Shown here one piece after another: positions 3,655 to 57,039 of a stretch of DNA of 64,000 bases. The DNA comes from Escherichia coli (GTDB taxonomy: Bacteria > Pseudomonadota > Gammaproteobacteria > Enterobacterales > Enterobacteriaceae), in NCBI RefSeq assembly GCF_003334385.1, contig NZ_QOWN01000006.1; one strand, 5' to 3'. Both the position numbers and the translations under genes were made by a program. The stretch's first letter is position 1. The number at the start of each line of letters is the position of its first letter. The notes below the pieces were generated by a model. That model saw nothing but the letters and a program-made list of their open reading frames with translations, did no database searches and was not told the origin of the DNA.

Positions 3655-7007
<3,353 letters not shown>

Positions 7008-15240: not shown

Positions 15241-15291
15241 CGACACTGCTTATTGCTTTGATTTTATTCTTATCTTTCCCATGGTACCCGG

Positions 15292-15378
15292 AGCGGGACT
15301 TGAACCCGCACAGCGCGAACGCCGAGGGATTTTAAATCCCTTGTGTCTACCGATTCCACCATCCGGGCTCGGGAAGAA
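15292..15378 (-). tRNA. leuZ: tRNA-Leu (87 nt)
   Basis: Reverse complement matches E. coli leuZ tRNA sequence as recalled (GCCCGGATGGTGGAATCGGTAGACACAAGGGATTTAAAATCCC...CCA). Confidence 0.95.
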
Positions 15379-15390
15379 AGTGGAGGCGCG

Positions 15391-15464
15391 TTCCGGAGTC
15401 GAACCGGACTAGACGGATTTGCAATCCGCTACATAACCGCTTTGTTAACGCGCCAAATTCTTCA
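15391..15464 (-). tRNA. cysT: tRNA-Cys (GCA), 74 nt
   Basis: Reverse complement matches E. coli cysT (GGCGCGTTAACAAAGCGGTTATGTAGCGGATTGCAAATCCG...). Confidence 0.95.
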
Positions 15465-15507
15465 GGCCTTTCAGCCAGACATCCGCTTGACGCCGATGTC
15501 TTTTAAA

Positions 15508-15584
<77 letters not shown>

Positions 15585-25419: not shown

Positions 25420-25545
<126 letters not shown>

Positions 25546-55049: not shown

Positions 55050-55415
55050 TTATTCATAGCGTCTGCTACGTGCGGGACGAGGTCGGGTGTACCAGGCAAT
55101 GCTGCCTAACAATGCCCCGACCAGAGCCATAAATAAAAATCCGACCAGTGCCCCTAACCACTTTCCCGCGGTAGAGCCTAAATCGCTTTCAAATCCCGAC
55201 ACGGGGGCATCGGGGATCCGGCTCATCACCCAGATGTAACGCGCCATTGCCCAGACGAAATAGCCACACCATGTATAGAAAGCCCACAAAGCCAGTTTGC
55301 CGCCAGGGCTGCGAGAGAGTCTCTCTTCCATCTTTGTCGAACCGTATTCCATTTTGAGATAACCCGGAAAATTCAGACTTAGTACTATTATGTGATAAAA
55401 GTCACATTTTTCCAC
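55050..55415 (-). CDS. yedR: Inner membrane protein YedR (start uncertain; ORF extends to 55433)
   Basis: ORF translation matches YedR; a GTG start at 55415 gives the 121 aa I recall for K-12. Confidence 0.8.
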   Translation of the reverse strand: MEKCDFYHIIVLSLNFPGYLKMEYGSTKMEERLSRSPGGKLALWAFYTWCGYFVWAMARYIWVMSRIPDAPVSGFESDLGSTAGKWLGALVGFLFMALVGALLGSIAWYTRPRPARSRRYE

Positions 55416-55643
55416 ATTGGATGAGCCAGTCAAGACTCACTCATTTTTTGAACAAATAGATAATTTTTGCGCAACGGCAGTGAATACAGGAAAAATCGTT
55501 TTGAGCGATTTTATTTATCTTTGATATCGGCTTTATTAATTCATTTAATCAATATATTAGCACTGATTACAATTATACCTTTTTATTATTCTGTGTCATG
55601 ATGCTTACGTTATTAGCCTTTTATCGTCTTGTTTATATTTTTT

Positions 55644-55669
55644 GGGCCGGCATGATGCCGGCTTTTTTT
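55644..55669 (+). terminator. Orphan plus-strand intrinsic terminator (GGGCCGGC-ATGAT-GCCGGC followed by T7) with no upstream plus-strand gene
   Basis: GC-rich hairpin 55644-55662 followed by TTTTTTT 55663-55669; nearest upstream plus-strand CDS is absent. Confidence 0.6.
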
Positions 55670-55980
55670 ATACCTTCATTAATGTGCGCGTGATCACACC
55701 AAGTGTTTAGCGCAACAATCATTGATACTCCCTATCTTTCCGCTTAACTCATAACATATTGATATACATTTATAATTTTCATGAATATTTATATTTGGAA
55801 TTCATGATTCTGAATTATATTAAATAGATTAGAAACATTTTGAAATCTTTTAAATACATTTGTTGCATGTAATCCTTAAAATAAAATGAAGTTCATAGAA
55901 TAGTATCCAAATGTGCTTTTTTTTGGATAACGGCACTTATTGATATATTCATGAAGATTATAATCACAAGGGAATACATA

Positions 55981-57039
55981 ATGAAAAGAAAAGTTCTGGC
56001 AATGCTGGTCCCGGCGTTATTAGTTGCTGGCGCAGCAAATGCGGCTGAAATTTATAATAAAAATGGCAATAAACTGGATTTGTACGGCAAGATGGTTGGT
56101 GAGCGCATTCTGACCGACCGTGAAAATGGTGAAAAAGGCGATAATTCTCAAGATACCTCTTATGCCCGTGTAGGCGTGAAAGGTGAAACTCAGATCAACC
56201 CTGAATTGACTGGTTACGGTCAGTTTGAACTAGACCTGGAAGCATCAAACAGACACAACCCTGACCAAACTCGTTTGGCTTATGCTGGTTTGAGTTACAA
56301 AGATTTTGGTTCATTCGACTATGGTCGTAATGTCGGTGTCGCGTATGATGCAGAAGCATTTACTGATATGTTTGTTGAGTGGGGCGGTGATTCATGGGCT
56401 GGTACTGACCTGTTCATGACCAACCGTACCAACGGTGTTGCAACCTATCGTAACACAGATTTCTTTGGCATGGTTGAAGGTCTAAATTTTGCTCTGCAAT
56501 ATCAGGGTAAAAATGAAGGTACAGGCAACTACAAAGCAAATGGCGATGGCCATGGTTTATCTGTAACTTACACTATTGACGGTTTCTCATTTGCTGGTGC
56601 TTACGCAAACTCTGATCGTACTGATTTCCAGTCTAGTGATAGTAAAGGTGAAAAAGCAGAAGTTTGGGCACTGTCAACAAAATATGATGCCAACAACGTC
56701 TATGCTGCTGTGATGTACGGTGAATCTCACAACATGAATTCCGACGACGGTGATGTTGTGAACAAAACACAAAACTTCGAAGTTGTTCTGCAATATCAGT
56801 TCGACTTCGGTCTGCGTCCATCCATCGGTTACTCCTATTCTAAAGCACTGGACGTAGCAGGTTACAAAGATTCTGATCGTCTGAACTACATTGAAATCGG
56901 TACCTGGTATTACTTCAATAAGAACATGAACGTATATACCGCTTATCAGATCAACCTGCTTGATAAGAGTGATTATGTTCTCGCTCATGGACTGAACACC
57001 GACGACCAACTCGCATTTGGTATCGTCTACCAGTTCTAA
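55981..57039 (+). CDS. yedS: Outer membrane porin YedS, intact (352 aa), OmpC/OmpF family
   Basis: Signal peptide MKRKVLAMLVPALLVAGAANA, trimeric porin hallmarks and C-terminal ...FGIVYQF; same position as the yedS pseudogene fragments of K-12. Confidence 0.93.
   Translation: MKRKVLAMLVPALLVAGAANAAEIYNKNGNKLDLYGKMVGERILTDRENGEKGDNSQDTSYARVGVKGETQINPELTGYGQFELDLEASNRHNPDQTRLAYAGLSYKDFGSFDYGRNVGVAYDAEAFTDMFVEWGGDSWAGTDLFMTNRTNGVATYRNTDFFGMVEGLNFALQYQGKNEGTGNYKANGDGHGLSVTYTIDGFSFAGAYANSDRTDFQSSDSKGEKAEVWALSTKYDANNVYAAVMYGESHNMNSDDGDVVNKTQNFEVVLQYQFDFGLRPSIGYSYSKALDVAGYKDSDRLNYIEIGTWYYFNKNMNVYTAYQINLLDKSDYVLAHGLNTDDQLAFGIVYQF

Follow-up and report, generated by a model that had tools for sequence, protein, structure and literature searches.

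The intrinsic terminator and ~90-nt transcript that looked like an orphan element in the intergenic region between drpB and yedS of Escherichia coli are the already known small regulatory RNA (sRNA) RseX, not a new gene. Taken as a whole, the evidence is best explained by rseX being the gene for a ~90-nt Hfq-dependent trans-acting sRNA that acts on ompA and ompC, a reading that we regard as nearly certain. The initial annotation had suggested an unannotated sRNA. The sRNA part of that suggestion was right, but the element is not new: RseX was predicted in 2002 and characterized in 2006, and it is present in Rfam (RF01401), in the curated K-12 annotation (b4603), and in published papers. Its promoter, length, and terminator had nevertheless been recovered to the base from raw sequence. 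The identity, ends, conservation, and terminator of the RNA, its complementarity to ompA and, less clearly, to ompC, and its lack of coding potential come from the present analysis; that RseX depends on Hfq, is repressed by H-NS, and represses its targets in vivo is taken from the literature.

To identify the element, the whole window (the 64-kb stretch of E. coli DNA that was analyzed) was searched with the RNA families of Rfam 15. Family RF01401 (rseX, “Hfq binding RNA”) matched the plus strand at 55580–55669 with 96.8 bits against a gathering threshold of 50. The match is full length (model positions 1–94 of 94; E = 4.9e-12 over the 64-kb window), though partly so by construction since the family was built from E. 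coli–type sequences. In the curated MG1655 record NC_000913.3, the ncRNA rseX (b4603) occupies 2033649–2033739 between drpB and the yedS pseudogene; upon base alignment, MG1655 position 2033649 corresponds to window position 55580, and 2033739 corresponds to 55669. Thus, the named feature that the initial annotation was unable to supply is provided by both the full-length family match and the alignment to b4603. The window copy and RseX of E. coli K-12 share the locus, relative strand, 5′ end, and terminator and are 97.8% identical. They differ by one substitution, C to A at 55607 (RseX nt 28, a loop position of the 5′ hairpin), and by a tail of U7 in the window instead of U8. The neighboring porin gene yedS is intact (352 amino acids) in the window strain and a pseudogene in K-12. 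Carrying both rseX and yedS intact, unlike K-12, the window strain therefore offers a better background for studies of RseX expression. The gene order in the window is dcm-yedJ-drpB(−), rseX(+), yedS(+)-hchA; this order is identical to that of MG1655 and to the map yedS′-rseX-drpB-yedJ in PMC7648144, where rseX is described as a 91-nt sRNA. Nothing was found against the RseX identity, and the identification is left uncontradicted.

The element looked orphan because automatic PGAP annotation of RefSeq genomes leaves rseX blank: the PGAP-annotated genomes among the matches listed carry no feature at this locus. The absence of an annotated feature in these E. coli genomes is therefore not evidence of novelty here. 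Two other family matches at the terminator were rejected, STnc430 (minus strand, 28.1 bits against 47) and RyhB (21.7 bits against 55); in both cases, the terminator hairpin fits the generic terminator part of the model. Elsewhere in the window, the search found the DsrA sRNA (RF00014; 47091–47177, minus strand, 102.5 bits), which is known and expected in this chromosomal region, a borderline match to the ES036 (CssrF) sRNA (25470–25511, plus strand, 38.1 bits against a gathering threshold of 37.6), and an ordinary cluster of three tRNAs (15285–15584, minus strand, 54 to 69 bits with the Rfam tRNA model). The features of the locus are collected in Table 1.

Table 1. Coordinates of features in and around the drpB-yedS intergenic region (window positions).
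Feature	Position	Strand	Basis or remark
drpB (formerly yedR)	55050–55352	minus	ATG-22 start per PMC7648144
Weak −35 candidate TTAATC	55545–55550	plus	3/6 match; 17-bp spacer to the −10 box
rseX −10 box TACAAT	55568–55573	plus	read from sequence
Promoter-like ATGACA-16-TATAAT	55599..55572	minus	sigma-70 scan, 11/12
rseX (RseX small regulatory RNA, 90 nt)	55580–55669	plus	RF01401 and MG1655 alignment
5′ stem-loop of the Rfam consensus, RseX nt 14–38, weak A-U/G-U helix	55593–55617	plus	Rfam structure and MFE fold
31-codon ORF, peptide MMLTLLAFYRLVYIFWAGMMPAFFIPSLMCA	55598–55693	plus	rejected as gene
Conserved single-stranded core/seed, RseX nt 25–51 (...CGUUAUUAGCCUUUUAUCGUCUU)	55604–55630	plus	
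U-rich stretch GUUUAUAUUUUUU, directly 5′ of the terminator	55631–55643	plus	
Rho-independent terminator	55644–55669	plus	hairpin 55644–55664 and U7 tail 55663–55669
Conserved yedS upstream block, probable promoter and 5′ untranslated region, separate from rseX	55810–55980	plus	
yedS, OmpC-family porin, intact	55981–57039	plus	

The ends of the RNA can be predicted from the DNA. The initial annotation had proposed that the TACAAT hexamer would give an RNA of about 85 to 90 nt, and the ends predicted in this way coincide exactly with the annotated rseX gene; 7 nt separate the end of TACAAT from the RseX 5′ end at 55580. A simple sigma-70 scan of the window did not call this plus-strand promoter because its −35 element is weak. 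As originally described, a plus-strand terminator consisting of a hairpin and a T7 tract closes the transcript, with no plus-strand gene upstream of it (drpB, earlier yedR, is a minus-strand gene) and yedS starting 311 nt beyond the end of the T tail. The hairpin reads GGGCCGGCA-TGA-TGCCGGCTT in DNA and GGGCCGGCA-UGA-UGCCGGCUU in RNA. Its core stem (55646–55652 paired with 55656–55662, loop UGA at 55653–55655) has seven G/C-rich pairs with a folding energy of −12.0 kcal/mol, and with two G·U pairs added it reaches nine pairs and −14.6 kcal/mol. It is the sole element of the centroid fold. The z-score of the whole folded RNA, −1.37, is unremarkable, as expected since the sRNA body is AU-rich and mostly unstructured. 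In Hfq-dependent sRNAs generally, a U-rich stretch of the kind that precedes the hairpin is part of an Hfq-binding 3′ module, and the stretch at 55631–55643 would play this role in RseX.

The intergenic region 55434–55980 is AT-rich, with 28 to 34% GC compared to ~50 to 55% in its flanks, and this trough is consistent with silencing by H-NS. According to PMC8313858, which recounts the earlier work, Chen et al. (2002) predicted RseX computationally from a sigma-70–like promoter and a terminator, and RseX was isolated as a multicopy suppressor of RseP loss; the same source credits Douchin et al. (2006) with 5′ RACE support for a primary transcript and a sigma-70 promoter and with the finding that RseX relies on Hfq to repress ompA and ompC. 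PMC8313858 itself reports that native RseX is undetectable in the wild type, that a Northern signal, comprising ~91-nt and ~75-nt species, is seen only in Δhns, that an H-NS motif lies at −42 to −32 of rseX, that RseX “and surrounding areas” increase in hns mutants, and that fimB and ihfB are further targets. In PMC11979758, fepA is repressed by the 3′ part of the RNA (RseX+52), which requires the terminator loop, Hfq, and RNase E.

To determine how widely the gene is conserved, we surveyed complete E. coli genomes. rseX and its promoter were found in 4880 of the 5426 genomes, and almost all of these carry one copy, on the chromosome (4883 rseX matches in total, two of them on plasmid-labeled records, with two copies in a few genomes). 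The remaining 546 genomes (~10%) had no rseX match. In one of the strains that lack it, Res13-Lact-PEB21-38-A, IS1A replaces the rseX region (positions 4100–4890 of locus L016, compared to window 55533 onward), and the replaced segment begins a short way upstream of rseX, takes in yedS, hchA, and the genes that follow, and reaches as far as hiuH. At least some of the absences thus arose via IS1-associated deletion.

Representative genomes of other species were scanned with a pattern taken from the 5′ half of RseX only. Since the 3′ half was excluded from the pattern, the terminator served as an independent test. The locus was found in E. albertii, E. whittamii, two other Escherichia species, one E. 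coli strain, and Citrobacter amalonaticus, and all six loci contain a full-length rseX scoring above the Rfam gathering threshold (70.9 to 95.2 bits). As far as the contigs reach, all six loci retain the order yedJ-drpB-rseX-porin(-hchA): E. albertii, E. whittamii, and the two other Escherichia species have yedJ-drpB-rseX-porin-hchA, and C. amalonaticus has yedJ-drpB-rseX-porin.

Thirteen copies from E. coli, four other Escherichia species, and C. amalonaticus were aligned. Invariant columns make up 59 of the 90 positions of RseX, compared to 7 of 47 in the segment upstream of the −10 box and 32 of 140 in the segment that follows the terminator; relative to the flanks, conservation is concentrated in the RNA. 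Within the core, CGTTATTAGCCTTTTATCGTC is invariant in 13 of 13 copies, Citrobacter included, and the 21-nt motif CGUUAUUAGCCUUUUAUCGUC (RseX nt 29–49) is unchanged even in Citrobacter. The terminator is present in all 13 copies, Escherichia and Citrobacter alike, and its stem varies only at the outermost pair, G-C in the other copies but A-U in C. amalonaticus, the only compensatory change in RseX. Eleven Escherichia copies cover the −10 box, and 10 of them match TAnnAT; the variants are TTCAAT in one E. coli strain and TACGAA in Citrobacter. The length of the U-rich stretch varies by 1 to 2 T between copies.

Covariation is minimal, with one compensatory pair (30 of 500 shuffles scored as high); with so little divergence among the copies, the statistics are weak, and the structure of RseX therefore rests on thermodynamics and conservation. 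The 5′ stem-loop showed no covariation across the 13 copies, and one of its G·U pairs is broken in 3 of them; the helix is only weakly supported.

This conservation bears on the view, already raised in the initial annotation, that the element is a remnant. In its strongest form, the locus would be RseX by descent but a cryptic, decaying part of an rseX-yedS porin module gained by horizontal transfer; H-NS would silence it permanently, and it would have no role today. The undetectable native expression in the wild type (PMC8313858), the weak −35 element, the AT-rich DNA, the absence from ~10% of E. coli genomes, in one of them through an IS1 deletion, and the decay of yedS to a pseudogene in K-12 and O157 would all fit such a history. 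However, from E. coli to Citrobacter, the RNA is far better conserved than the DNA on either side, the 21-nt core has not changed, and the terminator stem has been preserved through a compensatory change. This contrast points to purifying selection that still acts on the RNA, and we consider a remnant distinctly improbable.

Full-length folding of RseX against target mRNAs gave unrealistic end-to-end duplexes and was replaced by a windowed search for seed-like duplexes between the RseX body and start regions (−60 to +20) of K-12 targets, with 60 mononucleotide shuffles as controls, a limitation of the comparison. For ompA, RseX nt 37–51 pairs with −23 to −7, across the Shine-Dalgarno sequence, with an energy of −17.5 kcal/mol and a z-score of −2.25, and 1 of 60 shuffles was as good. 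For ompC, RseX nt 25–44 pairs with −15 to +5 (−16.5 kcal/mol), including 14 consecutive pairs over the Shine-Dalgarno sequence; 7 of 60 shuffles were as good, and the ompC score by itself is not statistically exceptional against mononucleotide shuffles. Both duplexes fall in the invariant core and are consistent with a block of translation at the ribosome-binding site. Regulation of the neighboring yedS through its start region was considered and rejected, as the best duplex (RseX nt 12–27 with −50 to −33, −10.1 kcal/mol) was no better than chance (51 of 60 shuffles as good).

In the mechanism that we propose, the weak sigma-70 promoter would initiate a transcript near 55580, which the GC-rich hairpin with its U7 tail would end at 55669. 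H-NS, with StpA, would silence the AT-rich locus and keep the RNA almost undetectable under normal conditions. When RseX is made, its core would pair with the Shine-Dalgarno regions of the ompA and ompC mRNAs and block their translation, which would lower outer-membrane protein synthesis. The additional targets reported would be fimB, ihfB, and, via the terminator loop, fepA.

A further possibility offered by the initial annotation was that the terminator belongs to a leader or attenuator of yedS, with transcription from TACAAT either stopping at the hairpin or reading through the 311 nt into the porin gene. rseX and yedS do have the same orientation, no plus-strand promoter above the scan thresholds lies between the terminator and yedS, RseX is induced together with its surroundings in hns mutants, and antitermination at the terminators of other sRNAs is known (the last two points from PMC8313858). 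Yet K-12 and O157, in which yedS is a pseudogene disrupted by frameshift, retain rseX at 97.8% identity. The 140 bp that follow the terminator show the lowest conservation in the region, and no structure competing with the terminator appears in the fold. RseX also acts in trans from plasmids (PMC8313858, PMC11979758, and PMC7648144). Closer to yedS lies a separate, near-invariant block of ~170 bp, in which 143 of 181 columns are invariant across eight copies from E. coli to C. amalonaticus; identity is 82.9% even in Citrobacter. This block resembles the ompC promoter region and contains GAAACATTTTGAAAT-type repeats like those of the ompC OmpR-box region, and yedS most likely has its own promoter within it. 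Some read-through from rseX into yedS may occur, but attenuation as the function of the element is very improbable, and the trans-acting sRNA remains the preferred reading.

The porin gene itself differs strongly between genomes. In the window strain, the intact product has 352 amino acids with a signal peptide, while porins at the yedS site of other Escherichia species and Citrobacter are 53 to 57% identical to it, and some alleles are labeled “ompC” by PGAP. DrpB and HchA are 95 to 97% identical in the Escherichia copies, and DrpB is 66% identical in Citrobacter. Judged by these comparisons, the yedS porin locus is hypervariable; the regulatory DNA upstream of yedS is much more conserved than the porin downstream.

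The 31-codon hydrophobic ORF noted earlier exists with the translation given for it and lacks a Shine-Dalgarno sequence. A small mRNA or dual-function sRNA encoding the peptide might be imagined, since the ORF is present, its product is hydrophobic, as many small membrane proteins are, and the N-terminal half, LLAFYRLVYIF, appears conserved in translation; this apparent conservation, however, is that of the sRNA core nucleotides read in one frame. Single-base changes in the length of the T run before the hairpin shift the frame among copies: four Escherichia copies have a stop at codon 19, and four others (K-12, O157, strain AHB1, and E. albertii) have a different C-terminal sequence. In Citrobacter, ATT and ATC replace both ATGs of the ORF. 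The reading frame also crosses the terminator hairpin, and its stop codon lies past the RNA 3′ end at 55669. As neither frame nor start is conserved, the ORF is not coding, and a peptide-encoding transcript can be dismissed as having next to no probability.

The sigma-70 scan revealed one more element, the promoter-like sequence on the minus strand, which is the only match of at least 11/12 in the 64-kb window. Its −10 hexamer shares 2 bp with the rseX −10 box, and its −35 hexamer lies within RseX nt 15–20. Most Escherichia copies retain both hexamers, although the −10 is reduced to 5/6 in E. albertii; in Citrobacter, the −10 is lost. The site faces drpB but lies ~180 bp upstream of that gene's mapped promoter. 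It was rejected as the drpB promoter, which has been mapped near 55352–55415: according to PMC7648144, the true drpB start is ATG-22 (55352), giving a protein of 100 amino acids, and the promoter lies between the old GTG-1 start (55415) and ATG-22. Weaker minus-strand matches at 55433..55406 and 55414..55387 agree with this mapped promoter. The mechanical ORF list has drpB at 55050–55433 on the minus strand, with a TTG start and 127 amino acids.

The minus-strand site may act as a divergent promoter, either competing or cryptic. In a broader reading, RNA polymerase at this site would add to H-NS in controlling the rseX promoter; separately, rseX and the yedS upstream block could form a conserved regulatory cassette flanking a hypervariable porin. 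We regard this reading as unlikely. If true, polymerase bound at the minus-strand site would keep polymerase off the rseX promoter and make a divergent transcript, so far undescribed, toward drpB, and this occupancy would help explain why native RseX is difficult to detect.

Among known systems, RseX can be compared to MicF and MicC, short Hfq-dependent porin-repressing sRNAs with a Rho-independent terminator that are encoded beside porin genes, MicF near ompC and MicC near ompN. Like RseX, sRNAs of this type repress mRNAs of other outer-membrane proteins by pairing at the ribosome-binding site. The adjacency of micF and ompC was seen in the genome, and rseX likewise adjoins the porin gene yedS. 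However, transcription of micF and micC runs divergently from the adjacent porin gene, whereas rseX precedes yedS in tandem. RseX is not related in sequence to either MicF or MicC, and Rfam assigns no shared clan; moreover, the pairing of RseX with the translation start of its own neighbor does not exceed chance. A second parallel concerns SdsR and ArrS, which regulate through an exposed intrinsic-terminator loop, as does RseX on fepA (PMC11979758). The loop is UUU in C. amalonaticus, so its sequence is not universally conserved; in the window, both the UGA loop and the stem that presents it are intact.
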